DNA of 64,000 nucleotides from Dictyostelium discoideum (lineage: Eukaryota), in assembly GCA_000004695.1 (NCBI GenBank), contig CM000155.2, forward strand, positions 1,312,001 through 1,376,000. The letters are read 5' to 3'. Below the pieces are notes generated by a model. It saw only the letters and a program-made list of their open reading frames with translations. It had not been told where the DNA came from and ran no database searches. Positions within the stretch are counted from its first letter, which is position 1; the number at the start of each line of letters is the position of its first letter. The translations under genes and the position numbers were made by a program. Positions 110 to 62,157 of the stretch are shown in pieces.

Positions 110-8534
<8,425 letters not shown>

Positions 8535-9953: not shown

Positions 9954-9992
9954 TGTGATTTATTCGATATCGGATTTAAAAATATTAGTTTG

Positions 9993-10066
9993 TATTCAGA
10001 GCGGGAATCGAACCCACGACCTAATCCGTGTTAAGGATTCGTGATAACCGACTACACCATCCGAAC
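9993..10066 (-). tRNA. tRNA-Val, anticodon AAC
   Basis: The reverse complement folds as a canonical cloverleaf: GTTCGGATGGTGTAGTCGGTTATCACGAATCCTTAACACGGATTAGGTCGTGGGTTCGATTCCCGCTCTGAATA. Acceptor GTTCGGA/TCTGAAT (two G-U pairs), U8, D-arm GTGTAGTCGGTTATCAC, anticodon stem AATCC/GGATT with loop TTAACAC (AAC at positions 34-36), T-arm GTGGG-TTCGATT-CCCGC, discriminator A. It is followed on the minus strand by a T5 run (RNA polymerase III terminator) at about 9975-9985. Confidence 0.85.
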
Positions 10067-16995: not shown

Positions 16996-18055
<1,060 letters not shown>

Positions 18056-29998: not shown

Positions 29999-31767
29999 TT
30001 AATTTGTTGAACTTGTTGAAATTGGTCTTGATTTGATTGTTGAATTTTGAGAATTTGATGTTGTATCGGTTGAAATATTTGTTATGGGCATTGTTGGTGA
30101 TGTATTTGATGATAATGAGATATTTGGAGATGAACTTGAGAGTGAAATATTACTTTGGTTATTATCATTATTATTATTATTATTATTACTATTATCAATT
30201 AAGTTTATATTTGTTTCAGATTTTGATAAATCATCAGATTTTTTAGAAGTTGGAAGTTTATTATTTTGAGAGATGGAATTTGATCTAATTCTTTTTGAAT
30301 TTGTAATAAGAGGTTGAAATTGTTGAAGTGTTCTTTTACTTCCAGAGATTAAAGATTTCAATTGATTAGTCAAGTCGTGGATTGATTGAATTTTATGATG
30401 TTCTAGACGTGAGATAACATTGGGATCAATAGAGGTACGAATGGTTTTAATAGTACGATCTTCTTGAGCCAAAGCAACTAGACAACGAAGTGCTTGTTCA
30501 ACCAATAGATAATCATAAGACTCTAAGAGTGTTGTGATTAATGGAATACCATTATTTTCTAATAGAGCAGAAACAATGGCAACTTCATTATGGAGAACAC
30601 TAAAGAATTTACAACATTTTGCTTTCAATGGTTCTTCAGCGGTATGAATTAATTTGACGATGGTTGTAATTAAACCAAAATCCAAAATTTGAGTGATAGT
30701 TACCTCATCTTGACTTGCAACCAAAGCTAAAAGGTCCAATGCAATCATTTTGATACTTATATTTTCCTTTACATTCAATAGTATCTTATGAATACTGCCT
30801 ACGATTTCATGTAATGTATTTTTGTGTATACCTTTGTTGGTTAATATACCCAATATTTGAATTGCATAAACACGAAGTGGGGCATCTTTTGGATCTTTAG
30901 TATCCAAATCATTACAAAATGAAAGTACACAATCATCTAAAAGACAATCATCGGTTGGTTTACCTTGAGCATGAGGTTTACCAATTACATGATCAATGGT
31001 TACAATTGGTAATGGTGCAGGTAATGGAATATCTTGACTCCATGGTGTTTTTAAATGAAATGAAATTTGACCAACTAATGATTGTTCACCCATAATAACA
31101 TCATCACCACCATGAATATGATGATGATGATGGTTATGATGATTACCACCACCACTACCACTACCACTACTACCACCACCACTATTTTGATTACCATAAA
31201 TACTATCATAAAATAATTGATATTTATTTTGTTCTTCTTTTAATTGTTGAGCATGTTGTAATTGTTGTTCTTTAAATTGTTGTTGTTCTTTTAATTGTTG
31301 TTGAATTAATTTTTGTTGTTCAGCATTGAATTTAATACGTGCTTTATCTAATTTAGTTTTATAGATTGGATAATATTGATTGGATGGATCAAGGAATGGA
31401 AAGATTGCAGACATCGATTGATTTTGAATTGCAGTTTCAAAGGTTTGACCATTCTTTGAAACAAATTCAACAACAATCTCAATGACTTGTTCAATGGTTT
31501 CAGCAGATTCAAACATTTTCAAATTGAAACCAATATCATCCATTTCATCATCCTCTTCCTCCTCCTCTTGATCAATATCACCTAATAATCTAGAATGAAG
31601 TTTAATTTCAGGATTTGATGACCAAATCTCTCTTGCAAATTCTAAATTCTCTGCATCTAAATCCATTTCTTCATCTTGTTTATTGATTGAATCTAATATT
31701 TTATAACCACCATTTTCACTCTTTAAAATATGTTTACCACCACCTCCACCACTACTACTACTATCAA

Positions 31768-31800
<33 letters not shown>

Positions 31801-32837
31801 GACGACGATTAACAATACCACGTTTTGATGATGATTGAAATGATTCAGAATTTGGAGTCATTAAAGTTTGTGCTACACCACCTACTGATGAACCACTTTG
31901 ACCATTGGATGAGTTGAGTTGTTGATTCATTACTAATGTACTACTTTTACTTTCTATATTTTGTAATAATGATTTAATTGAATGCATTTGTGAATTTAAA
32001 CGTTTATCACAAACGTGATATTTAACTAATTCCAAGAACTTAGTATTCATTGGTGGTACATTATCCCAAAGTAGTTGATTACAAAGTTCGAAATAAGAGG
32101 TGATATCATCGGTGATACTACCGACTTTTCTTTCTTTTTTTCTCTTTTCATCATCACGAAGAATATATTCAACCGATTCTTCTAATCTTCCATTTGCCAA
32201 CGGTTCAATTGCAGATAGTTTACCCAACACTCTATTCAATTTCAACTCGAGTACGGTTTTCCTAGTTTCACCCTTTAGACAGGTTTCCCTCCAATATTGA
32301 CCAAACGCATCAGAGATCTCTCGACGAGTATTTACAAAATCAACTATATAGCATGCATTCTTTCCCTTGGAAACTCTACTTAACCTACCAATAGTTTGAA
32401 CGGCACTGGCACCCTTTAAAGCTCTATCGACATACATCACGGCCAATGATGGCTCGTCGAAACCTGATGATAGCTTATCGGCAACAATGATCAATTGCAC
32501 TCTATGTTTCTTATCATTTCTCAAGATTTCCGAGATACCATTTCTCTTTGAAAAGTATTCTGCATAACTACCATTTATCTTTTCATCATATTCCGCTTTC
32601 TCTTTTTTCTTTAAACTAAACTTTGCAAATGATGCTATAATATCAAATTTTTGATTCTTTGGTAATGATTTCACCAATGATTCCAATGTTTGTTTATATA
32701 ATAAAATTTGTTCTCTACTATTTGTAACTAACATTGCTCTACAATTAAATTCATCATTATTAATTTGTTCTCTTAATTTTAAAAAATGTTTTATAATATA
32801 TGATGACTTTTCTTGAATTATTTTCTTTTTTTTAATA

Positions 32838-32880
<43 letters not shown>

Positions 32881-34442
32881 AAAATAGAATTAGTATTTTT
32901 TTATTTTTTTATTTATATTAATAATAATACATACTTTATCATTATTTGGATGTTTTAAAATATGATAAGATGATTTATTTTCATCATTAAAAAAGGTATC
33001 ACTTGTTTTATCATTTGAAACTTTGGTTAAAATTGAAACAGTTGTATAATGATCAATACAATTCATAACAATTTTATCTTGTAATGCTTTCTCTATTGAA
33101 TAAGTATGAAATGGTACTCTTAAATTACCTCTTGTATCACCAAATAATTCTAAAGCTTTTGGTTTTGGTGTACTTGTAAAACAAAAATATGTTATATTAT
33201 TCTTTTCTCTAGTTTCACCATTTAATATTGCTTTTATTTTTTTTTTTTTTTTAAATAAAATTAAATTATTAATTAGATTATTATAAATTATTAAAAATTA
33301 TTAAAAATTATATTATATTATATTATATATATATATTTACAACTAAAAGTATTTGTCATTGATCTAATATCATCAGAAATAATTGCAATTGATTTATATT
33401 TATTTGAAATATGATCAAATCCATGAGTATCAATAACTTTTGAAAACTTTTGCATTGTTGAGATTACAACTCTAGTTTTAGCTTTTGTTAAAATCTTTTC
33501 CAATAATGCAATTGTATTTGGATGTGAAATTGATGTTAAATCATTATCTTTTAAAAATTGAGTAATAATTGAACCAAGTTGATAATCTAAATGTCTTTTA
33601 TCATTAATCACTAGTATTAAATCATATTTCAATTTACCATCTTCTAATAATCTATATAAATTTGTAATTAATGATGCAATCGTATGACTTTTACCTGACC
33701 CTGCTGCATGTTGAATTAAATAATTTTTTGAATTTTTAACTGGTTTTATTACTTGACTATTATTATTTTGATTATTATTATTATTATTATTATTATTTTG
33801 ATTATTTTGATTATTATTGTTACTACCACTTGTTGAAGAATAATTACTATGATCAGAATTTGTTGATGACGGAGCAAATAATAAACCCATTGGTGATAAA
33901 GGTGTCGCTAAAGGTGTTGCTGGTGATAATGGTATTATCTTTTTTGAATCAATTTTAAATTGTTCCACAATATTTTGAATTATTTTTACACATGCATCTT
34001 TTTGATGAAATCTAGGGATAAGTCTTTTCCAACCTTCCATAACCATTTTATCTATTGCTATACTATCTACATTTTCTATATTTACAAATTTTACTCTACT
34101 ACTATTATTATTAGTATTACCGCTACTACCACTACCACTAATATTACTACTACCACTATTACTACTACTACTACTAAATACGCCTCTAGCAGTTGGTAAT
34201 GGGCTAGTTTCTTTTGGTGGTGGTGATTTCATTTCATCATCTATATTCTCTTCTTCATCCTCTAAATCATCGAAAAAGTCATCCCCATTGTCTGATCCAT
34301 CACTATCTTGTGAATCAAATTCTAACTCATGAGATGGTATCATCTCATCTTTACCTAAAAGTGATGATGTCCTTCTTCTATTTGTTTTTGGTGTACCTGT
34401 TGTAGTAGTTGTGGTTGTTGTTGTTGTCTTATTGCTATTACT

Positions 34443-34511
<69 letters not shown>

Positions 34512-35015
34512 ATTATTATTATTTGATGATGGTACATCAAAACCAATAGTTTTAGTTTTTGGTTGATTTTTAGGTGTAGGAATTGATGAAAAAGTATTAT
34601 TATTATTATTTTTTGAACCATATACTTCAGAAGCTGATTGAGGTGATGGCATTAAAAAACTATTATGTGAAGAGACAGGGGTATGAAATGAACCAGGTGG
34701 TGAAGGTCTAAGGAAAATAGATGATGATGGTTTTTGTTGGTTTCTATAGTTTGTTGGTGATGGTGATGTTGATGAAAAACTACTTGGTACACCAAATCCA
34801 CTATAATAACTATTTGGTGATTGTTTACTTAAAAATCCAGAGAAATTTGGTGATGTCGATGTTGAACTATCCGATGATGTTGACATCATTATATTTCTAC
34901 TACTACTACTAAATTGATGAGTAGTGCTATTACTACTCCCACCACCTCCACCACCACCACTATAATGAATTCTTGGTGATGACATTGAACTATTTGATGA
35001 ATATGATGCACCTAA

Positions 35016-35048
<33 letters not shown>

Positions 35049-35696
35049 GTTATTATTATTACTACCACTACTATTGCTATTGCTATTATTATTGGTAGTG
35101 GTTGGATTTGTTTTGGGTTGGTTAAATGAAGATGATAGTGGTATACCAACAGGTCTTAAGAAGCCACTATTTGTAGTTGTTATACTATTACGAGTATTAT
35201 TTGAAGCGTTACGTAGTAGATGTTGTTGTTGTTGTTGCATTCTAGATAGCATACCACCACCAAATGATGATGGGGCTGATGAAGGTTTAGTAAATCCTCC
35301 ATTATTTGGACTACTAGACATACTAACACTTGCATTTGAATTTTTTATACTTGTCGAAGAGGATGATGATATACTCGGGGTTGGTGTTGGACGTGCTGAT
35401 TGTTTAGAAATTAAACCCTTTTTAAATGAATTGTTTGCGCTATTTCCTGCACTATTGTTATTGCTATTGCTATTGCTATTATTGCCTGTACTACCAATAA
35501 TTACAGTGGTGGTTGTTGGTATTGGTATTGGGGTTGAAGTGGTTGGAGATGAAGTTGTAATTGTTGACTTTTGCTTCAATGATGAAGAAGAGGAAGAGGA
35601 AGAAGAGGAAGAAGTTGGTGATTGTTTTGAACTTGGTATATTTATTGCTGTAGATGGTGGCTTACCACCATTCTGTTTTTTATTAGATTCCATCAT
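29999..35696 (-). CDS. Large SF2 helicase/translocase resembling the R subunit (HsdR) of type I restriction enzymes, fused to a C-terminal armadillo-like repeat region. About 1825 aa. Exons 33341..35696, 32935..33230, 29999..32824.
   Basis: Genuine ATG at 35696. Exon 1 has an S/T/N-rich N-terminal region, then Walker A (YLIQHAAGSGKSHT) ...VVISTMQKFSKV ... ISDDIRS. Exon 2 has FCFTSTPKPKALELFG (motif III). Exon 3 has SSGFDEPSLAVMYVDRALKGASAVQTIGRLSRV (motifs V-VI; compare HsdR MLLTGFDxxxLxTLYVDKxLxxHxLxQAxxRxNR) and later armadillo/HEAT-like repeats (ILGILTNKG...ALDLLALVASQDEV...LLENNGIPLITTLLES...ALRCLVALAQ). Two 110-nt introns (GTAAAT donor at 33340 with AAAAG acceptor, GTATGT donor at 32934 with AAAAAAG acceptor). 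Their phases (1 and 0) were verified against the track frames. Confidence 0.8.
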
Positions 35697-36679
35697 ATTT
35701 TTTTAACTAGTTCATATATATAATTTTCTGGCGCGTCTTTTTATTGTATTTTTTTTTAATATATATATTACTATTATAATTATTTTATATGTGTGAGCTT
35801 TATATTATTTATTTGTTGTTTTTTTTGTTTTTTATTGTTTTTTTTTGTTTTTTTTTTTATTGTTTTGTTTTGTTTTTTTTTTTTTTTTTTTGTTTTTATG
35901 TGTTGTTACAATTTTTTTTATTATGCACAAAAGAAATAAACCTTATTAAAAAAATGAAATTTAATAAAAAGAAAAAAGGAAAAAGAAAGATGAAAAAATA
36001 TATAAAGAAATGAAATTGTGCGAATGTGTTTGTACAAGTAATTGAAAAAAAAAAAACAAAAAAAAAAAAAAAAATTTAATTTAATTTTTCAAATTAAAAA
36101 AAAAAAATAAAAAAAAATAAAAAAAAATAAAAAAAAAATAAAAAATAAAAAAAAATAAAATTAAAAAAAGATATTTTTTAGTGAATGTGTAATGTGAAAA
36201 AAAAAAAAAATTATATTACTTTATTTATTTATTCATTTATTTATAATTATTATTATTATTTTTTTTAATAATTAAACATAATTATGTTCATATGTTCTTT
36301 TTATTTTTTTCATATTTTGGAAATCAAATCGTTGGGGTTATTGGGGAAATATTAAAAAATAATTTGATTTTTTTTTTTAATTTTTTTTAATTATTTTTTT
36401 TTTTCCTCAAATAATATCTTATCAAAAACGTGGATGTTTTTTATTTTCCTATTTCAAAATATTTTTTTTTAAATTTATTTTGAAAATTCAAGATATTTAT
36501 TATTTTTTTTTTTTTGTTGTTTTTTTTTTTTAAAGAAAAAAACATTTAATCTCGAGAAGGTTCTTTTTTTATTTTTTTTTAAAAAAAAATAAATATAAAA
36601 GGGTTTTTTTTTTATAATCATTATCTTCACAATCAAAATAAACAAACAAATAAACAAATAGATAAATAATAAAATAATA

Positions 36680-39552: not shown

Positions 39553-42123
39553 TTATTCTAATTGTTTTTATTTTTTTATTTTTTTAAAAAATTAAAAAGC
39601 TATTTTGGAAGTGGCATTAAAATGGGACCAGCAAAACAAAAATATGATTTTTCAATTTTTGAAAATATGACTCAAATTTCATTATTTGGAGATAATAAGT
39701 ATTTCAATTTTGAAGGACAATTTCCATTCTCTTCTTTACCACCAAAATTGACATATCTTATATTTCCAAATGGTAATTTTTCATTCCCAGATATTAAATT
39801 TTTTGAAAATTTTACAAGTGTCGGGTTCAACTCTATTTCCAGGTCAAATGTTTATGGTACACTACCAAAGTATACACTATCAAAGAAAGTTTCATTTTCA
39901 ATGAGTAATAATAAATTAACAGGAACAATTGATAAAAGTTGGTGTAATATCAATTCAGATTTTTCAAATAATCTATTTAGTGGTGAACTTCCTGAATGTT
40001 TTTATTGTTTTTTAAATGATTCAAGTGTTTCAAAGTTTTTAAAAGGAAATAGTTTTACAAATTTTAATACAAATAATCAAGATTGTGGATATTGTAAGTA
40101 GTATTTTTGTTATTTTTTTTAAAAAAATTAAAAAAAAAAAAAAATTTAATTGGTTATTAATTAACAATAATTTTAAATTTTTTTTTAATAGCCCAAATTT
40201 CAATATATAGTATTAAATTTAGTGCTTTGGGGATATCATTTAATATTTATGGTAAAAATATGGGACATTATCAAAATATAATTGCAACTCCTCCTTTAAC
40301 TTTAAGTGATAATAATCTTGATGGTTCAATTTCAGGTTATTTGTCAACACCTGTTGGAAATTTAAAAACAGTTGAATTTAGATTAAAATCACCAGGAATA
40401 AACTTTACTATTGCTGTAAAACCTGAAAATCCTACAATAGATAGTATCACTCAAAATAACAATACATTTACTATTTATGGTACTTATTTCTCATATAATC
40501 AATCATCAATCAATGTTATTATTGGAAATAATATTTGTAATGTTTTCTCATCAACATTTTATCAAATTCAATGTGAAATTGGCTATCCTGTTGTTGATAA
40601 AGGTATTATCAATCTAAAGGTAACAGTCGAAGATAAATTTTCATCAAGTAAATCATTTGAAATAACTCAAACTAATCAACCATGTCATCCAAATGATTGT
40701 AATGGAAATGGTGTTTGTGATCATGTTTATGGTGTTTGTAAATGTAATAGTAGATGGGTTACAATTGGAAATCAAATTTGTTTAATTACAAATCATTTCA
40801 TTTCATCATCTACTCAAGTTGATTCAACAACAGGTGGTAATATAACGTTATATGGTTCCTTTGGACCTGATCATCTATCATACCAATTAATAATTGATGG
40901 TTTAAATTCAACAATCTTTTTTATTGATGATAATTCAATTCTAACATCAATAGAACCGGGTACAGGTGGAAAATTAATAACATTCATTCAAAACAGTATT
41001 ACATGGAGTGGTACAGTTTATCCATACATTATTAAATCTTTCAAATGTCCAAACGATTGTGGTGGAAATGCTCAAGGTAACTGTAATACATTAAATGGTC
41101 AATGTGATTGTTTAAAGGGATATACTGGATTCGATTGTAGTCCATTACCAATTGTTAAAACAAAAGATGAACCATCATCAACAACATCGGTTGCTTCATC
41201 AGGTTTAACAACAATCTCAAATGAACAAACTGGTTATCAACTTTCAATTAACTCTGTGGTTGAAATTGATTTTAATGGTAAAGAAATTCCAAATTCTTTA
41301 ATTAAACTTTCAGGTAATTGGAAATTGGAAAGTAATCAAAACTCAATTTCAATATTTAAACAACAAGTAGAAAATACTATATTTATTTTAACTATTGAAG
41401 AGATTGAAAATTCTGATAAACAATTCTCATTTGCTGGTAATAATTTCACAGTTTCTAAAGGTGGTATTAAAATTTCTTTCTCAATTTCAAATTGGAATTA
41501 TCAAAGTAATTTAAATACACTTAGAGTAGAAATGATATCAGATATTAAAATCGATGAAAATAAAGATATAAATAGCTGTAATGATGATAATAGTCAGCCA
41601 TCATTTGAATCATCATCAAATTCTCAAAGTGATACTGGTAATTTAAATTATCTTAAATTTTCAATTAATGGTAAAATACTTCAAGGTAGATTCCAAGATA
41701 AAATGCTATCCGATGGTAGACCAACTTCAACATTTTCAAAAGTATTATCTAAAACTAATAATATGGTAACTCTTGGTTTAGATTTACCACATTGTATTGA
41801 ATGTTTATTAGATCCTGATTTTTCAGTTTTGTGTATGTATTTTTTTTTAAAAAATATTATTATTAACTATAAAAATAAAATTATACTAATCTATTTTCAT
41901 TTATAAAATTTTAGTGAGCCCAGATTTTAAATCATCAGATTCTTGTAAATCAGATGATAAAAAACCATGGTTAATTCCTGTTGTAGTTGTCATACCAGTT
42001 GTTGTAGTTGCAACCATCATTACTGTTATTATTGTATTGGCAAAGAAAAATAGTGTTAAACTTAGAATTGGTTTGAGAAATATTTCAATGGGTTCAGTCA
42101 AAAAGGATCATTCAAGAAAATAG
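38474..42123 (+). CDS. Type-I transmembrane glycoprotein with an N-terminal LRR-like region, beta-sandwich (IPT/TIG-like) segments and two EGF-like Cys modules; possibly Tgr-like. Proposed exons 38474..38558, 38669..38928, 39010..39138, 39224..39508, 39600..40093, 40192..41832, 41915..42123.
   Basis: Signal peptide MKFHYSIFLFYFLFFFKIIKC. LRR-type segments (L..L.L..N.L.G.IP..). EGF-like CHPNDCNGNGVCDHVYGVCKCNSRW and CPNDCGGNAQGNCNTLNGQCDCLKGYTGFDC. Many N-glycosylation sequons. C-terminal TM helix (WLIPVVVVIPVVVVATIITVIIVLA) with a short basic tail. The phases of exons 3-7 were verified against the track frames. Exon 2 shows an apparent frame discontinuity near 38865-38885 (see findings). Confidence 0.6.
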
Positions 42124-43091: not shown

Positions 43092-43097
<6 letters not shown>

Positions 43098-46000
43098 AGT
43101 AGTAATTATAAAAGTTCTGATTTGCATTGGAGAAAAAGTAAAAACAAAACCATTTGAAGAATCTTCTTTAGTTGATGATGATGATTTATGATCATAGTTT
43201 TTACCATCAACAGTTTTCCATTTTAATCTTGATAAATTTGATAATTTTTGAACACCAGTTAAATTCATTTCAGTTGCAGAAGTGATTGTAATTGTTGAAA
43301 AGATAGTTGAAAGATCTAAAGTGATAGTTTGTGGATCTTGTGAATCTTGACCATCAATTTGATAAATATTTTCAATACGTAAAAGTATGGTATTATCTTG
43401 ATTATCTAACCATTGTAGAGTTTGAATCTTTAAACCATTTGGTAAAGGTGAGGCTGAAGTCAATGGTGAGTAAACACCTTGATATTGAGAATTCCAATCG
43501 TTTGAAGATTGTTGAGTGGTTGTAAACATTGGGAGTAATGGATGTGATAAAGAGAGTGCAGCAGGACGATAATGAGATTGAGCATAACTTGAAATATCAT
43601 GGAAAATCAATTTACTAGTTGTAACGATTTGAGTTGACTCATTCATTGGTTGACCAACACCACGACCATCATCTTTCAAAGTACGACGATGCATCATCAT
43701 ATCCAATTGACCATCTCTTAACGATGCACATCCACGACTTCTATCAGTGACAATGGTGAATTGTAATGATTGATTAGGATCTTGAATGTAGGCAATAGCA
43801 TTCACAGGTACATAATTACCACTGGTTGGTTGAACCACGGTTAAATTCCATGATGGACGATAGTTGGTTATTCTCTTTTGCATTTCCATACCTTGAGAAT
43901 CGGAATACCATGTCTGGTCAGTCACCAATGTAGTGGTATAACGTGATACAATCTCTTTACCAATTCCATCACTAATATCAATTGGACCAATGATTTCTTC
44001 AACCTCTAAATGATCAGCATTTGAATATAATCTAAAGGTTTGAACCATTTCATTTGACCAAAATCTTCTAATACTTGATGAGATTTCACCTCTAATAATC
44101 GATACACTTGGTGTGGCATTATTGTAAGGATAAGCAAAATCTTCAACAGGTCTAAAGATATAAGCACCACTACATTGAGCAGAATCATCATTACCAACAC
44201 TTGGATTATACCAAATATATTCTTGAGTAATTGATGAAGTAACCCCTGATGTTTTATTAGTAATTGAAAGTATTGAACCATCTTGAGAACTAAATTGAAC
44301 GTTAATATAATCATTCTCTAATATAATTGGATCATTATATGATACTTTTTCATTAATTTTACCACCACCTGAAACTATAATTTCATCTTGAATTATTATT
44401 GCTGGAATTGAATTTGGTTCAACAAAATCAGATGCTGTAGATGTTATAATATAGGTTGAATAACCTAATGGTGGGATTGTGGCTAAAAACTCTAGAATAA
44501 AGGTACCATTAATTTGATTAACTTGAGATGTAATTGAACCATTGGATGAGGAAGTTACTGTAACATTTGCAATTGGAATTGGAATACGAACTGGTTCATT
44601 ACGAGTCCAACTTAAACTATTATAAATTAACACTGGAACTGAGGTACCTGATGAAAGTGGATCAGTTGCTGGACAAATACTTTGATTTAATAATGGGCAG
44701 AAGGAAATGGTTGGAGTGGCAGCGGCCGATTTTGAATTACCATTGGCAGTTAGTAATGTGCCAACAACTGTATTAATAGTTTCCAATGAAGCACAATTAC
44801 CAATTGAAAGACGTTCTGCATAATCATCTGCAACATGTTGTTGTTCTGTTCCTGATACGGCATCATGATGTTGAGCAATACCCATTACCTCTCTCATTAT
44901 AACAATGTCATCAACCAATTGTTCAGATCTACTACTTGGCATAAGATTACTACTAGTTACCAACATTTGTTCAACTACATGTAATAGAGCATTATTTTGA
45001 CGAACGTAGCCTTTCAATGCTGGACGACTAACGAAATAACCAGTCCAATAACTAAATTCATTATCAGCATATGGGAAGAGATCATCAGTTTTCACTTCCC
45101 ATACTAGATTGGCATCATTTACAGCATCTATATAAATTGATGGAGTTGAATATAACAAATTTAAACCATATTTATCCGGATTTGAATTGATATGTGCGAT
45201 TAGTTTGTCAATGTTTTTGTAATACATTTGAGCGTTAAGGTAAGCGAAATCACAACCAAATGGAATTAGTACATTATTGGTACGATAATGAGTTGCATAT
45301 TCAAGTGCCACTTGAGTGAACTGTTCAGCTCTTGAGTCTACGTTATTATCGAATAAATTTGGGTCATCTTGAATTGGGTCATCACCTTGCTCAAAGTTGA
45401 AACCATCTGGAGTACAATACATTGCACGTAGTACTGATGTGAAAACTTGATTCTCTGGTGTACTTTGGGTCGATCTCCACATGAACTCCATTTGCTTATT
45501 CTCTAAACGAGCTTCGATATCTTGATAATCCATACGACCGATAATGAATGCATCGAATCCTAATTGACCAAAGATACGAGCTTGTGTTGCACTATGGCCA
45601 AATGGATCTATGTGCCAGCCTATCTTTGGCATAACTCCGAAATTCTCCCAAAGGAATTGATGGCCCAATGTCATTTGGTCAATAGTATCGTCATAGTAGG
45701 TAGTAGCCTCATCATTCATACAATACCCACCATTTATGAATTCCAATTGACCACTTTCAACCAAACCCTTAACAATATTTTGCATTGTTGTACTTTGTTC
45801 ATCCCACCATCTTTGGAAAAATGCAATTTCAACATAAATAAACTTTCTTTCTGGATTTGCCAATAAACAGGTAATGGCTGTATCCAAAGTATATTGAACA
45901 CCTGCAAATGCAATTGACATATTTGATCCATAATAATATTCATCAACTGTTTTTAACCAACCAACATCCTATTATTTTTTTATAAAAAAAAAAAAATAAA

Positions 46001-48708: not shown

Positions 48709-49622
48709 TTAATTAAAATTATTTTTTACAGATGGAGATACACCACTTTCATATAAAGAAACGATATCAATTTCTTCATCTTCAGCGCTATGATGAGCTT
48801 TTGATGGTGGATCAACTGGTGGGAAGAAAGGGGAATTTGAAGGTAAATTTGGAGTGATTGGAGTATTTAAAGTGATTGGGGTTGAAGGAGTTGAACCATT
48901 GGTATGATCTACTGATAAAAGTAGTGAGGAAGATGATTGTTTTAAATTGGTTTGTTCGATGGATTTCTCTAAATCACCAATTTGAGAATCAAAAGGTGCC
49001 AATAATTGTAGGGTACTAGTTAATAATTTTTCAGCGATTGGTAATAAATGTGAAAATCTTTTTTCGTTATATTCAAAACAATTTGCAACCATTAATTTAA
49101 TGGCATCAATGAATTGATTTTTAGATTTATATTCCCAATGTCTATTTCTATCTCTCATTGTTGTTAAATCGATTGGATTCTTGATGACCTTATGATAATC
49201 TGGTGCTAATTTTGGTGTAACTTTATGTCTAAATGCAATGAATTCATCATTGGTTCTAAGTTTATCCAATATTCTTTCAAAGATATTTGAAAGTTCAACA
49301 TCTGCACCACTACCATCCTTTCTAACTCTATTTCTACGTGATGATTTATCGCTACCATCAAGTGTTGTTGAACTAAGTGATGGTGATTCACTATTTGATT
49401 GATCCAATGTTCTTTTCTTTCTATTTGAACCACTTGATGATGCTGATAATGGTGTATTTAAAACTGATTGATCTTCAGTTCTATTATTACCACCATTAGT
49501 ATTATTACTATTACCACTATTACTACCATTATATCTAATTATAATACCGGATTGTGATAATGTTGGTGATTGATTTGTACTATTTGAAAGATTATTTGTA
49601 TTATTATTTTCATTATTATTAA

Positions 49623-49692
<70 letters not shown>

Positions 49693-52600
49693 ATTATTAT
49701 TAATATTATTAATATTATTATTATTATTATTATTAATATTATTAATATTATTGTTATTGTTATTATTATTATTAATATTATTATTATTATTGTTATTATT
49801 ATTATTATTGTTATTATTATTACTATTATTATTATTATTATGATTATTATTACTATTGTTATTGTTATTATTACTACTACTGCCACCATTATGATTTGAA
49901 TCTCTATTACTACTTGAATGATGTGATGAACTATGACTATCAGAACTACTACCTGTACTATTTCTATGATGAGAATCTCTATGATCACGACTACTACTAC
50001 TACTACCACTCGAACTATTTCTTGATCTTTCACTTCTATGCTCACGATGTTCTCTGTCACTTCTATGTTCTCTATCACCGCTTCTGTGTTCACGATGTTC
50101 TCTATCACTTCTGTGCTCTCTATCACCACTTCTATGTTCACTACTTCTATGTTCTCTGTCGCTTCTATGTTCTTTATCACCACTTCTATGTTCACTACTT
50201 CTATGTTCACTACTTCTATGTTCACTACTTCTATGTTCACTGCTTCTATGTTCTCTGTCGCCTCTATCACTGCTTCTATGCTCTCTATCGCCACTTCTAT
50301 GTTCACTACTTCTATGATGTGATGAGTGTTCACCACTTCTATGTTCACTACTTCTATGTTCACTACCTCTATGTTCGCTACTTCTATGTTCACTACTTCT
50401 ATGCTCACCACTTCTATGTTCACTACTTCTATGTTCTCTATCGCTACTTCTTGGATGGCCACTGCTTGATGAGGATGATGATGATGAAGATGAAGATTGG
50501 CCAATTCTAATTTTTGTACTTGAACTACTATTTGAATCAGAATTAGCTTGTTGATTTGGCATTACAATACTAATTCTTGTTTGATCTCTATCAGTATTAC
50601 TATTGTTATTACTACCACTACTACCAATACCACTACTTGAACTACGATGTGGTGGTATTGGTTTATTACTACTACTTGTATTTAAAGAGAAATTATTATT
50701 ATTATTATTATTATTATAATTATTATTATTTATATTTGATACTGGAATATTACCAGCACTAATATTAATCATATTTGAAGAACCAATTGTAGCACCAATA
50801 CTACTATTACTTGAATTCATATTGAATGAATCTTCTCTTTGATCATTCTTTTTTAATCTTCTTAATCTTTCTTGAATTCTTCTTCTTTGTTTTTTAGTTT
50901 CTTCATCCTCTTCATTTTGTTTTCCAAATTTCTTTCTATCTTGAAGGAATTGATCATGTTTCTTCTTTTGATAATCTTGAACTACCTTTGGATCACGAAT
51001 AATTTCAATTCTCTTAAATAAACTTCCATCTGGTTTTTGAAATAATGTAGTTCTCTTTACAAATACTCTATCACCTTGAGTAAGATCATCTTCTTCTGCC
51101 TTTGCTTTTGCTTTAGCTTTAGCTTCTTCTGCTTTTGCTTTAATCTCTTCCTCTTCTGCTTTTGCCTTGGCTTTAGCTTTAGATTCTTCATCTTTATTCT
51201 TTGTACCCATTAGTTTATTATATTCCTCTTCTTCATTATCTTCTTCTTCATCTGATTCATCACGAGAGAATAAACTTCTACTACGTTTACCAGTTGATTT
51301 ACTTGATGATTTATTATTATTATTATTTGATTGATTTTGATTTTGATTTTGATTTTGATTTTGATTTTGACTTTGATTACTATCACCAAATAAACTATCT
51401 TCAAGATCTTTTAATAAATCAGCATCTAAATCTTCATCATATAAATCATCACCTTTACCAGCGATTGCTTTAATTTGATTATCAAATACCAATTGACATT
51501 GTTCTTTATATTGTAAATTTTGATGATCTAAACTATATCTTGAACCTCTTGCAAATTTAGTCATTGCAGCATTACTATTTGAAGCCAATGCAGCCTCACT
51601 GGATTTCTTACGAACCAAATCAATTCTTTGCCAACGAGCCAATTTATTAATGGTTTCTTCATCTACACCCAATTCTAATAAAACTGTTTTAGAAGCTGAT
51701 AAAGAAAGTTTTCTTAAATCTGCATCTGTACCAGTGACTTGATTCTTTTGAAGAGCCAATTTAATTGCTTTTTGTTTTTGATTTACAACTTTTTGAGGCA
51801 TTTTCAAGTAAGAGTATTCATCTTCTCTACCGGTTGGATCATCACTAATGATTTGTAATCTACCTTTACCTTGCATAGCACTAAGGAAACTACCAGTTAA
51901 ATTCCAAGGTGTAATTGAGAGTTCATCCTCAACTGGTTTTATAGATTTCTTTATTGGATCCTCATCGTCAAGATTACCAAGAATCGTTGGAATTGTACCT
52001 GGTGCTGTGAAATGAATGATACCATTATCCTGAAGTCTTTGAAGACCAATGAGCATACTCTCGAATGAAACCACTGCCTCTGGTGTTACCAACTTTTGAA
52101 ACTCCTCTTCGGTAGGCAATGTAAAGTTATCTTTTACAGTCCACCAACCACTATCATCCCCACCACGTTGAAAATCTGCACAATCCTTTAAACGTTTTCT
52201 AATGGAAGTTTCAGATTGTGATGGAAAGGCAGAGCAGATATCAGTGATCTTTAAACGACGTTGTGGGTTACTCTTTTTCAAGAATTGTCTATAGATGTAT
52301 GCTTGAAGTCTACTCTTTAAAAACATATTGGCATTTCTAGAGTTTGGTGCAGGTACTTCAACCTCTGGTAAGATTTGACCAGCCGCATAGATTGGACCAA
52401 CATCACGAATATACCAACGTTTACCATCTCTAGATTTAACTAACAGGAAATCGGTATTGGCTGAATTATGTTTATGAATGGGTACTTTAAATAAATTATT
52501 TACAACGGATTGAATGGTTTGACCAGGATTGATGTCACCTAAAAATGGTGATTCTTCATTATTATCCAACATTACCAATTCACCATCTTCAAAATTTAAA

Positions 52601-53592
52601 TCCTTTGGTCCAGTATCATGAGTATTCTTTTTCTTATAATAATTTCTAATTCTTAAACCCATACCAACATTTGAAACTAATGGTGGATGTTGTTCTGTAT
52701 ATTCAATTAAAACTAAACGACCATCACGTGCTGATAAATCCGATTTATGTAATGATTTCTTTGATGATGAAGATGATGATGATGAAGACGACGACATCAT
52801 ACCACCATTAATACTACCTCTCATATTATGACCACCCATTATACTATTTGTACTACTATTTAAAAGTAAATTATTTGAACTTGAACTTAAATCACCACTT
52901 AAACTACCCTCTTTATTATAGATTATAATTCTAAATGGTACATTACTTGGGAATAGAATACGTGGACGATGTGCATAAATTAAATCTTCTTTGGTAAGAT
53001 GAGTTTTAACCAATGATAATTTAATACCAGGTAAAGAATGTTGAATTACGACTTTAGTTGAACCATTTGGTGGACGTGGTGGTGGTTTTCTAACTGGTCT
53101 ATAGAATTTATCATTTGAAAGATTGAATTTATCAATTTCTCTTTGAGATTGTTCACGTTCTTCACGTTCTTTTCTCTCATCTTCTTCTTTATCTTTTTGT
53201 AATTGTTCTTCGAATGACATAGTTTGACCATTGGCAGCTCTTGCAGCTGCTTGTGCTCTTTCCAATGCAGCTGCTTGTGCTGCTTGTGCTGCTTCCAATG
53301 CCAATTTCTTTTTAGATTTCTTTTTAACTGGTGCTTGTTGATCACCATTTGAACCTGATTCACCATTATTATGTTCTTTCTTTTCAATATGTTCTTCAAA
53401 ATACATTTCTCTATCATTTAAATCTAAAATTAACATTGAAACTTGTTGTATTTTCTCTGGTACCATTGATTCATCCCATATTATATTATCAATCCAATCA
53501 CCATTTTCTAATTCTTGATTCGATATTGGAAAAAGTGACCATTTATCAATATTACTTTTCATAATTTCATCAATTTCTTTATTATTATTTTG

Positions 53593-53630
<38 letters not shown>

Positions 53631-53979
53631 TATTATTACTATTATTATTATTATTATTGGTATTATTATTATTACCATTATTATTGGTTAAATTATTATT
53701 ATTTGTCGTACTATTTTTTTTATTATTTACAATTGTTTGAATATGTTGTTCATTTTGCGCTTTATCTTTATCTTTTTCTTTTTCTTTATCTTTTTCTTGT
53801 GATAATGGTTGTTGTAATAAATTTTGTGAATCTGTGTCCATTATTTCTTCTTTTTCACTAATATGATCTAATCCAAATAATTTACTACTATTATTTATAT
53901 TATTATTGTTATTTTTATTTTTATTTTTATTATTTCGTTGAGTTGTCGTAGATGTTGAAGTTGATGATAAAGTTGTTGC

Positions 53980-54033
<54 letters not shown>

Positions 54034-55727
54034 AGTTGTTGATGATGATGAAGTTTGTTTTGAATTTTTATTTAAATTTGGTGTTAAATCATTAATTTCA
54101 ACTGGCATTGTTATTGCCTCTTTAATTATAATATTTTGTTGTTGATTATCTGATGATAAATAAAATTGATTGAAATGATCAGACTTTTTAAATTTAATTA
54201 AACTTTCCTCATCCCAAATGATATTATCCTCCCAATTAACTTGTTGTAATGAATGATAATTTGAATCGGGTACCATATAAAACATTGTCATTATTTCTTC
54301 ATCCTCAGTCTCCCTAAGTGGTTCAGGTACATATTCTTCATCTTCTTCTGCTGCTGCTTGATATAATTGCATCGATGTTAATGTTGGTGTTGTCGTATTT
54401 GATGATGTTAATGTATCCTCTTCACCACCACCACCTGTTGAGCTAGTGATACCAGCATTTGATTTTAATAATTGTTTCGTTATACTATCAATTTCTGTTA
54501 TTGGTTTCTTTATAATTGAAGGTGGTGGTTGTTTTTTCGATGGTTGATTCCACAGTAAGAGTTCATCAGTTTCAATTGAATCATCATTTAATGTTTGTGG
54601 TGTTGAGAATCTAGTTTTACGTGATTTCTTTCTTGTTGGTTTATCTGGAAATTTGGGTGCAAATAATTGAGAAAACTTTAAAATGAAACCTTCCGATGAT
54701 TTACCACTAACAAATACTTTAAACTCTTGATCCTCTGGTGTAAACATTTCAGGTGTTTCAAGTATTGATTTTACAACTTCATATGAACCTGCTTTCATTG
54801 TTACCTTTTTCTTTGGTTTCTTTTCTTTATGACGACGACGATGACTACCACCACCGCCACCACCACCACCACCACCACCATCTGAATCTGAATCTGATCT
54901 TGAAGAAGATGATGAAATTGATGATCTTGAAGAAATTGAAGATCCTGATGATCTTGATGAATCAGACATTGAGTCGGATTCAATATCTGATGCTGACCTT
55001 GACATCGATGGTGATCTTGATGATGATGCTGATGATGATGCTGATGATGATGATAATGATGATGCTGATGAAATATCATCATCATCTTCATCTTCACTAC
55101 GAGTTGATTTTTGCTGTTGTTGTTCTTCTTCCTCATCAAAATCGAAATCATCAACTGATGGTTTCTTTTTAATTTGTAATGGTTGTTTTGAACCAACTTG
55201 TTTTCTTTGTTTTCTACGTTCCTTTTTCGATAATTGTCTTTGTTGTTGTTCTAAAAGTTTTAAACGTTGTTGTTCTTCACGCTCTTTATGTTGTTGTTGT
55301 AATCTTGCAATTGCAGCATTTGCAAGTTTATCCGCATTCAATTTATTGATTTCATTCTCTGTGGATTGAATTTCTTCAGCAACTTCATCAATATCCTCAT
55401 AATCTAATGCATTTTTATCGGGTACAATAACTGAATCTGTAACTGCATTCTTATCATCCTCATCAATACCAATTGTTTTTTTAAATGATATATGTTGACT
55501 ACTTTTTGCAAATAATTCTAAATCTTTTTTTAAATCCTATAATTAATAAATAATAATAATAATAATAATAATGTTAATATATATATATAAATATATATTA
55601 ATAAAAAAAAACATATTCATACTTTAAAAACTTGATCATTCTCTTCAACATCCAATTCACCAGACTCTTTAACATTACCAAAGAGGAAACCTGTTAAATT
55701 CCCTTTCTTTTCTTTATCTTTAGCCAT
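48709..55727 (-). CDS. taf1: Transcription initiation factor TFIID subunit 1 (TAF1). Exons 55623..55727 and 48709..55536. About 2310 aa.
   Basis: Exon 1 MAKDKEKKGNLTGFLFGNVKESGELDVEENDQVFK with a GTATGA donor. Exon 2 starts DLKKDLELFAKSS... after a TTATAG acceptor (phase 0, verified). Central DUF3591-type region (…RWYIRDVGPIYAAGQILPEVEVP…FLKSRLQAYIYRQF…GWWTVKDNFTLPTEEEFQKLVTPE…). C-terminal bromodomain (…FRHKVTPKLAPDYHKVIKNPIDLTTMRDRNRHWEYKSKNQFIDAIKLMVANCFEYN…). Extensive poly-N and acidic tracts. Confidence 0.85.
50030..50450 (-). repeat. coding 15-nt tandem repeat (about 28 units) inside TAF1, encoding (S/G)EHRS-type His/Arg/Ser-rich repeats
   Basis: Repeated units cacttctatgttcac / tctatgttcactact on the plus strand. 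Protein: SEHRSGEHRSSEHRSSEHRGSEHRSSEHRSGEH...DREHRSDREHREHRSGDREHRS. Confidence 0.6.
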
Positions 55728-62084: not shown

Positions 62085-62157
62085 GCTCGATTAGCTCAGT
62101 CGGCAGAGCGTGGTGCTAATAACGCCACGGTCGCAGGTTCGATCCCTGCATCGAGCA
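62085..62157 (+). tRNA. tRNA-Ile, anticodon AAU
   Basis: GCTCGATTAGCTCAGTCGGCAGAGCGTGGTGCTAATAACGCCACGGTCGCAGGTTCGATCCCTGCATCGAGCA. Perfect 7-bp acceptor GCTCGAT/ATCGAGC, anticodon stem TGGTG/CGCCA with loop CTAATAA (AAT), T-arm GCAGG-TTCGATC-CCTGC. T4 terminator immediately 3'. Confidence 0.9.

Follow-up and report, generated by a model that had tools for sequence, protein, structure and literature searches.

A 64,000-nucleotide (nt) stretch of the Dictyostelium discoideum genome (assembly GCA_000004695.1, contig CM000155.2, positions 1,312,001 to 1,376,000; hereafter the window) contains on its minus strand a three-exon gene for a protein of 1825 amino acids (aa), in which a motor of the HsdR type, the motor subunit of bacterial type I restriction enzymes, is followed by eukaryotic interaction modules. 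It was found that relatives of this protein are spread through the Amoebozoa and that the D. discoideum copy has lost the DEAH box of its motor. An earlier note, made from the letters of the window, had proposed a gene of about 1825 aa with two canonical 110-nt introns, and this model holds (Table 1). The spliced coding sequence is 5478 nt long and has no internal stop; two minus-strand open reading frames (ORFs; 35696..33318 and 32734..29999) are connected via a middle exon of 296 nt. The gene model is independently backed by the orthologue of Polysphondylium violaceum (annotated as KAF2069682.1, CYY_009004; locus L004), because introns 1 (...H/SILTGETR, phase 1) and 2 (...NDK/KIIQEK) both lie there at the identical codon and phase, and homology is unbroken over both splice junctions. 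The N-terminus, MMESNKK...IPSSK, is similar to the N-termini of the orthologues. The N-terminal low-complexity region gave no Pfam match at E<=1, HSDR_N included, and is just 28% and 16% identical to the two long-form orthologues described below. Within this poorly conserved region the motif PKTKTIGF (PKTKTIGF.VP) is kept in all three long-form orthologues and may be a linear docking motif. An ORF of 219 aa antisense to exon 1 is Leu/Val-rich, mirrors the sense low-complexity codons and is almost certainly not a gene.

All the motor motifs quoted in the earlier note, AGSGKS, STMQKF (aa 746-751), FTSTP, SSGFDEP and QTIGRLSR, are present in the protein. The note had read them as the marks of an HsdR-type motor and not of a DEAD-box, SNF2 or RecQ helicase, and the top matches of the profile searches are indeed HsdR-specific. 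In Pfam, PF18766 was matched at E=1.1e-17 and PF22679 (type I restriction enzyme subunit R domain 3, T1R_D3-like) at E=4.3e-12. The NCBIfam hsdR model TIGR00348 was matched at E=2.9e-41 over profile positions 265-671 of 674, with a score of 141.8 bits, which is under the curated family cutoff of 284.55. As this match begins only at position 265, the nuclease third of HsdR is absent. The top matches in PADLOC are type I restriction endonuclease models (REase_I, E=1.3e-28), and the HsdR chains of EcoR124I are the sole sequence relatives in the PDB (E=2e-9), with an alignment spanning motifs I-VI. The nuclease domain HSDR_N (PF04313), which bacterial relatives of the motor carry, was not found in the window protein at E<=1. 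In a close bacterial relative, that of Aquirufa antheringensis (L006 1-10012), HSDR_N is present and the gene stands inside an hsdM-hsdS-...-hsdR operon. Between hsdS and hsdR of that operon lie GmrSD-type and SLFN/AlbA_2 + Fic-like genes, an insertion that looks like a small defence island. No hsdM (N6_Mtase) or hsdS (Methylase_S) was found among the large ORFs of the window, as the earlier note had also reported for methyltransferase and specificity subunits. The sequence evidence thus confirms the predicted motor as HsdR-type, without a nuclease domain.

The motor resembles bacterial HsdR (EcoR124I, PDB 2w00; TIGR00348) in the layout NYLIQH-x-x-GSGKS, TT.QKF, FT.TP, QTGFDEP...YVDK and VQT..R..R, and in having the two RecA-like domains (RecA1 and RecA2), domain 3 (PF22679) and the beginning of the helical domain. 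Differences from bacterial HsdR lie in the loss of HSDR_N and the lack of HsdM and HsdS genes in the neighbourhood, in a spliced gene with host low-complexity inserts, in the addition of a Surp module, an armadillo (ARM) domain and a tail like a nuclear localisation signal (NLS), and in the deletion of DEAH. The motor is 71-74% identical to its P. violaceum orthologue, and the folded domains overall are 58-75% identical.

Downstream of the motor follow, in this order, an acidic-aromatic FA..W motif (DLDAENLEFAREIW), a Surp module, a helix rich in Gln, Lys and Glu, an all-helical domain of about 210 aa and a basic QFQP...KRIR tail. The FA..W motif has counterparts in the long and the short dictyostelid forms, in Mastigella and in the proteins P0135 and P0019. 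The Surp module, which the earlier note had missed, is well above its Pfam cutoff (Table 1), has human SF3A1 SURP1 as its closest PDB structure (E=3e-7) and occurs also in P0132, P0133 and P0137. Among the solved structures matched by it, the module is found in splicing factors only. The helix after Surp could possibly form a coiled coil. The earlier note had assigned the C-terminal 450 aa to ARM/HEAT-like repeats; the ARM fold is present, as a right-handed superhelix built of three-helix repeats, but its extent is about 210 aa, the rest of the C-terminal half being FA..W motif, Surp, long helix and low-complexity sequence. The Arm repeat profile PF00514 matches this domain weakly (E=0.02, 15.4 bits against a cutoff of 20.6), and the orthologue P0133 has weak matches to ARM_ARMC5 and ARM_PUB. 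The basic tail motif QFQPLITNSKRIR, of which the pattern [RQ]F[QRT]P..KR[KI]R recurs in distant members, is a putative NLS. When the C-terminal half alone was used as query against an index of 5.8 billion proteins no match was obtained; the long-form orthologues were found via the motor profile only.

Relatives were sought by word-indexed and by exhaustive profile searches. About 30 cluster representatives outscore the plateau of bacterial HsdRs, and all of them are without HSDR_N. The family profile gave 8156 library matches, and after the roughly 30 eukaryote-like ones the top matches are bacterial proteins of HsdR length, which the word-indexed search shows to be annotated as type I R subunits. 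The members with named hosts come exclusively from Amoebozoa: Dictyostelia (Polysphondylium, Tieghemostelium, Cavenderia, Acytostelium, Synstelium), Archamoebae (Pelomyxa, Mastigella, Mastigamoeba, Entamoeba marina), Discosea (Thecamoeba) and Tubulinea (Pyxidicula). Further members sit on eukaryotic contigs, one of them among eukaryotic genes. A member from Tara Oceans, P0022 (L005 3731-7141), combines the motor with two TFIIS domains, the N-terminal (Med26/TND) and the central one, in a single uninterrupted ORF. It ends in a C-terminal CxxC...CxxC segment resembling a zinc ribbon, and P0162 is a relative of it. The names that family members bear in the databases are limited to "hypothetical protein", "helicase domain-containing protein" and "type III restriction res subunit".

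Two paralogues exist in dictyostelids. The long form, with motor, FA..W, Surp and ARM, is represented by the window gene, P. violaceum CYY_009004 and Tieghemostelium lacteum DLAC_05281. The short form, of about 740-1030 aa, has an intact DEAH box and FA..W and is without Surp or ARM. Short-form proteins are P0015, P0017, P0131, P0001, P0003 and P0016 (locus L003 7789-10672). The Acytostelium protein P0001 (L003) had been considered as an orthologue, with the Surp/ARM tail being lineage-specific, and this was dropped when the exhaustive search placed it as the short-form paralogue. A neighbour-joining (NJ) tree was built from 386 columns of 31 eukaryote-like and 60 bacterial HsdR sequences with 100 bootstraps. 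The eukaryotic set was separated from the bacterial HsdRs by one bipartition in 100/100 replicates. The long form was also recovered in 100/100, the pair of window and P. violaceum in 93% and the short form in 100%. The mean distance inside the eukaryotic set, 1.10, exceeds the 0.79 among the sampled bacterial HsdRs and is therefore compatible with one old acquisition. The earlier note had suspected an old acquisition, and this is borne out because each of the three major amoebozoan lineages has relatives, which group together apart from the bacterial HsdRs with 100% bootstrap. The family, which the note had not seen to be Amoebozoa-wide, thus fits a single acquisition that would have taken place at or before the amoebozoan radiation.

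A further feature of the D. discoideum copy, also absent from the earlier note, lies at motif II. DEAHR-x-[HY]G is invariant there among about 40 family members with two exceptions, the window protein, which has SDDIRS, and one Mastigamoeba member whose whole motor is degenerate. In the bacterial relatives the box reads DEAHSS or DEVHSS, and the DE.H core is invariant in bacterial HsdRs too. Both long-form orthologues, of P. violaceum and T. lacteum, retain SDEAHRSHGKSM. Comparison of the window with P. violaceum DNA revealed a single clean in-frame deletion of 15 nt by which Glu-Ala-His-Arg-Ser of DEAHRSHG was lost. P. violaceum has GAT G[AAGCCCATAGATCAC]AT GGT AAA (L004 2150-2240) and the window GAT GAT ATT AGA, in which the second Asp codon takes its G from the Glu codon and its AT from the codon for the second His, that of HG. 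Asp-Asp is left at the Walker B position. An alternative splice or hidden exon restoring DEAH was considered and rejected, as the sequence is absent from exon, intron and other frames and the DNA alignment shows a clean deletion. In motif V QT has become SS. At 50 near-invariant sites the window protein has five unique departures, the highest number found, and its orthologues have none. The Mastigamoeba balamuthi member P0145 (1634 aa) has diverged in the region after the Walker A lysine, in TT.QKF and in motifs II, III and V, and looks like an independent pseudo-ATPase inside the same family.

A relative-rate test counted the lineage-specific changes of window and P. violaceum with T. lacteum as outgroup. 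Over the whole motor there were 78 changes in the window lineage against 36 (p=1e-4), and the excess is concentrated in RecA1, where it is 4-fold (24 against 6, p=0.001). The differences were not significant in RecA2 (19 against 16), the helical domain (12 against 7), FA..W and Surp together (13 against 17) and ARM (18 against 12). Because the RecA1 excess goes together with 58-75% identity of the folded domains, an intact ORF and intact splice sites, the pattern fits a relaxed or altered catalytic constraint, with fold and adaptors apparently functional, and not a pseudogene. ATP-driven translocation by this protein is doubtful because of the 15-nt deletion, the Arg to Lys change in motif Ia, the QT to SS change in motif V and the acceleration of RecA1. 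The translocase that the earlier note had named as a possibility is thus not sustained for this member.

TFIIS domains bind the elongation machinery of RNA polymerase II. Of the predicted modules, Surp is the strongest functional clue. It is known that HsdR motors use ATP to track along duplex DNA (PMC3874165). Together with the occurrence of Surp in splicing factors and the association of TFIIS with RNA polymerase II, this makes a recruited nuclear motor the simplest reading of the family. The ancestor was the HsdR motor subunit of a bacterial type I restriction enzyme. The family has lost the PD-(D/E)xK nuclease and the methylase and specificity partners, has retained both RecA-like domains with the beginning of the helical domain, and has gained the FA..W peptide, a Surp of the kind that tethers splicing factors of the U2 small nuclear ribonucleoprotein (U2-snRNP)/SF1 type, the ARM domain and the basic NLS-like tail. 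The family could then act as a nuclear ATP-driven motor that tracks duplexes as HsdR does, brought to transcription and splicing complexes by Surp and ARM, and by the TFIIS domains in the marine relative. In D. discoideum the catalytic Glu and the DEAH His have been deleted, and the evolution of RecA1 has been faster since then. Since Walker A, motif VI, Surp and ARM are conserved but the DEAH Glu and His are lost, the window protein most likely binds ATP, hydrolyses it poorly and serves as a scaffold or adaptor and not as a translocase. We give a probability of about 0.55 to this account, in which an old domesticated HsdR-derived family probably works in the nucleus with the transcription and splicing machinery and this copy is a hydrolysis-impaired scaffold. 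The broader proposal, that Amoebozoa-wide and possibly wider HsdR-derived motors are tied to RNA polymerase II and U2-snRNP via Surp, ARM or TFIIS while the window lineage is a pseudo-helicase scaffold, is more tentative and falls short of even odds.

Several points weigh against this account. The link to splicing and transcription is drawn from the co-occurrence of domains. The ARM tails of dictyostelids, of Mastigella and Pelomyxa, and of a GC-rich clade align with one another weakly (hhalign E=0.07-0.24) and give no BLASTP match. The NJ tree is unrooted, and its alignment was guided by a hidden Markov model derived from eukaryotes. The deletion was seen in one assembly and may be a peculiarity of strain or assembly; it and the rates were assessed against P. 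violaceum and T. lacteum. The Asp-Asp pair may leave the protein with residual ATPase activity.

If that residual activity were enough, the window protein would still be an active ATP-dependent DNA or RNA translocase, and the rapid change of RecA1 would represent adaptive retuning. The intact Walker A, Q motif and motifs III and VI, the 71-74% identity of the motor to its orthologue and the acidic residue that still adjoins the Walker B Asp are in its favour. We regard it as unlikely, though worth keeping in mind, since the five deleted residues include Glu and His of a box that, save for a single globally degenerate member, is otherwise invariant, since invariant sites of motifs Ia and V are changed as well, and since RecA1 carries a 4-fold excess of changes. 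According to the title of Davies et al. 1998, as cited in PMC4231737, the ATPase of EcoKI HsdR is moreover impaired when any one of its seven DEAD-box motifs carries a substitution. Decay of the gene in this lineage, with the loss of motif II as the onset of pseudogenisation and a protein without retained function, would also explain a lost catalytic box and an accelerated RecA1. It is very improbable, as the 5478-nt reading frame has stayed open although stops arise easily at the roughly 20% GC of this genome, both introns have canonical splice sites, the deletion is in frame, and no excess of changes was seen in RecA2, the helical domain, Surp and ARM, whose identity to P. violaceum is 58-75%.

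The role of the family could also be a different one. The ancestor was an anti-phage motor and bacterial conflict-system ATPases have been repeatedly domesticated by eukaryotes (PMC3417536), so the family might retain a defence-like function, such as the sensing or tracking of foreign, viral or transposon DNA, with ARM as a sensor or partner platform and no part in splicing or transcription. The variation of architecture between lineages (ARM, Surp and TFIIS tails, short forms) and the independent degeneration in Mastigamoeba agree with such a role. We consider it improbable, because the nuclease is gone from all eukaryotic members, the solved Surp structures matched are splicing factors only, the TFIIS fusion suggests RNA polymerase II and the folded domains are well conserved among dictyostelid species, not fast-evolving in appearance. 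That the protein is an ordinary eukaryotic superfamily 2 (SF2) helicase of the DEAD-box, SNF2, RecQ or Ski2-like kind, with a superficial likeness to HsdR, can be regarded as refuted. The weak Pfam match to DEAD (E=1.6e-5, under its cutoff) and the generic one to ResIII would speak for it; no SNF2_N or Helicase_C match was obtained in the Pfam search. Against it, the best profile matches are all HsdR-specific, HsdR chains are the only sequence relatives in the PDB, and the next-best library matches beyond the family are bacterial proteins of HsdR length.

Catalytically inactive helicase modules serve as interaction platforms, an example being the C-terminal cassette of spliceosomal Brr2. The hydrolysis-impaired scaffold favoured here would be like that cassette in keeping the SF2 fold and nucleotide-binding motifs, in having lost catalytic residues and in the proposed role of an RNA-processing scaffold. 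It differs in belonging to an unrelated SF2 lineage, and for the window protein inactivity is a prediction. With SF3A1/Prp21, SFSWAP and SUGP1/SF4 it shares a Surp above the Pfam cutoff, nearest to SF3A1 SURP1, which is found as an SF1 fusion in PDB 7vh9. Unlike these splicing proteins it has just one Surp, G-patch, RS, ubiquitin-like and further splicing-factor domains are lacking, and the combination of Surp with an HsdR-type motor was not seen in any annotated protein outside the family.

That ATPases of restriction systems have been reused in the nuclear processes of eukaryotes is already known (PMC3417536). Eukaryotic ATPases described as derived from restriction-modification or conflict systems include SWI2/SNF2 lineages (Strawberry Notch, HARP) and MORC (PMC3417536). 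The present family follows the same course, in which the ATPase of a restriction system loses its nuclease context, gains eukaryotic adaptors and would be reused in the nucleus. However, Strawberry Notch, HARP and MORC stem from ATPases of the SWI2/SNF2 type or of the GHKL type and not from type I HsdR, and PMC3417536 makes no mention of an HsdR-derived family. No description of a eukaryotic family derived from HsdR, or of an architecture with motor, Surp and ARM, was found in the open-access literature. Of two papers on comparative genomics and lateral gene transfer, neither mentions "restriction", and "helicase" is absent from the second. An apparent literature match turned out to be "HsDrosha" and not the family.

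If the broader proposal is true, nuclear motors that stem from restriction enzymes would form a new class. Restriction-system ATPases are already regarded as the seed of eukaryotic chromatin remodellers such as the SNF2 lineages and MORC, and the type I HsdR motor would join them. The combination of Surp, ARM and TFIIS domains leads to testable hypotheses on splicing and transcription, and the organism is probably amenable to genetics. As DEAH is lost here with the adaptors conserved, while the orthologues have the box intact, nature has set up an experiment on whether the cellular role of such a motor needs ATP hydrolysis, in which the window lineage would supply the "catalytic-dead" allele.

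Table 1. Positions of the gene, its predicted parts and other features in the window
Feature	Position	Strand	Remarks
Whole gene	29999..35696	-	exons 35696-33341, 33230-32935, 32824-29999; 1825 codons + stop
N-terminal Ser/Thr/Asn-rich low-complexity region	34077..35696	-	aa 1-540; without nuclease domain
PKTKTIGF motif	34539-34562	-	aa 379-386
HsdR-type SF2 motor	31952..34076	-	aa 541-1175, both introns inside; profiles and EcoR124I HsdR; contains Q motif, low-complexity insert, RecA1, RecA2, helical domain start
Q motif	34002-34019	-	within motor
Host low-complexity insert	33783-33926	-	within motor
Motif I / Walker A, AGSGKS	33687..33704	-	aa 665-670; intact
Motif Ia, NDKRHLD	33585..33605	-	Lys replaces otherwise invariant Arg
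Motif II remnant, SDDIRS	33360..33377	-	protein alignments and DNA alignment with P. violaceum
Intron 1	33231..33340	-	110 nt, GT..AG, phase 1, 2.7% GC
Motif III, FTSTP	33166..33180	-	aa 803-807; intact
Intron 2	32825..32934	-	110 nt, GT..AG, phase 0, 4.5% GC
Motif V, SSGFDEP	32450..32470	-	aa 1003-1009; QTGFD or ETGFD in nearly all relatives
Motif VI, QTIGRLSR	32375..32398	-	aa 1027-1034; both arginines retained
Acidic-aromatic FA..W motif	31622..31663	-	aa 1272-1285; 67-70% identity to orthologues
Surp module	31346..31489	-	aa 1330-1377; PF01805 E=1.1e-8, 35.3 bits, cutoff 21.1
Long Gln/Lys/Glu-rich single helix	31196..31372	-	AlphaFold2 (AF2) models, helix at query residues 102-160
Armadillo-repeat domain	30317..30946	-	aa 1511-1720; about 13 helices, roughly 4-5 repeats
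Basic tail motif, NLS-like	30284..30322	-	
C-terminal Ser/Asn-rich low-complexity tail	30002..30283	-	
Antisense ORF	35047-35706	+	over exon 1
2678-aa uninterrupted ORF	498-8534	+	sole Pfam signal sub-threshold TPR_12
tRNA-Val(AAC)	9992-10066	-	
Brix-domain protein	16996-17745	-	
ComC-type protein	40227-41906	+	ComC supersandwich, TIG, EGF
GH38 alpha-mannosidase	43092-45920	-	
TAF1-like (TFIID largest subunit) ORF	48709-55341	-	DUF3591 E=2e-139 and bromodomain
tRNA-Ile(AAT)	62085-62157	+	

The window has 17-34% GC and contains tracts of poly-Asn and poly-Gln such as are typical of dictyostelids. Its other large ORFs are ordinary eukaryotic genes, among them those for the GH38 mannosidase and the TAF1-like, ComC-type, Brix and TPR proteins, and the ComC-type protein is compatible with a dictyostelid origin.

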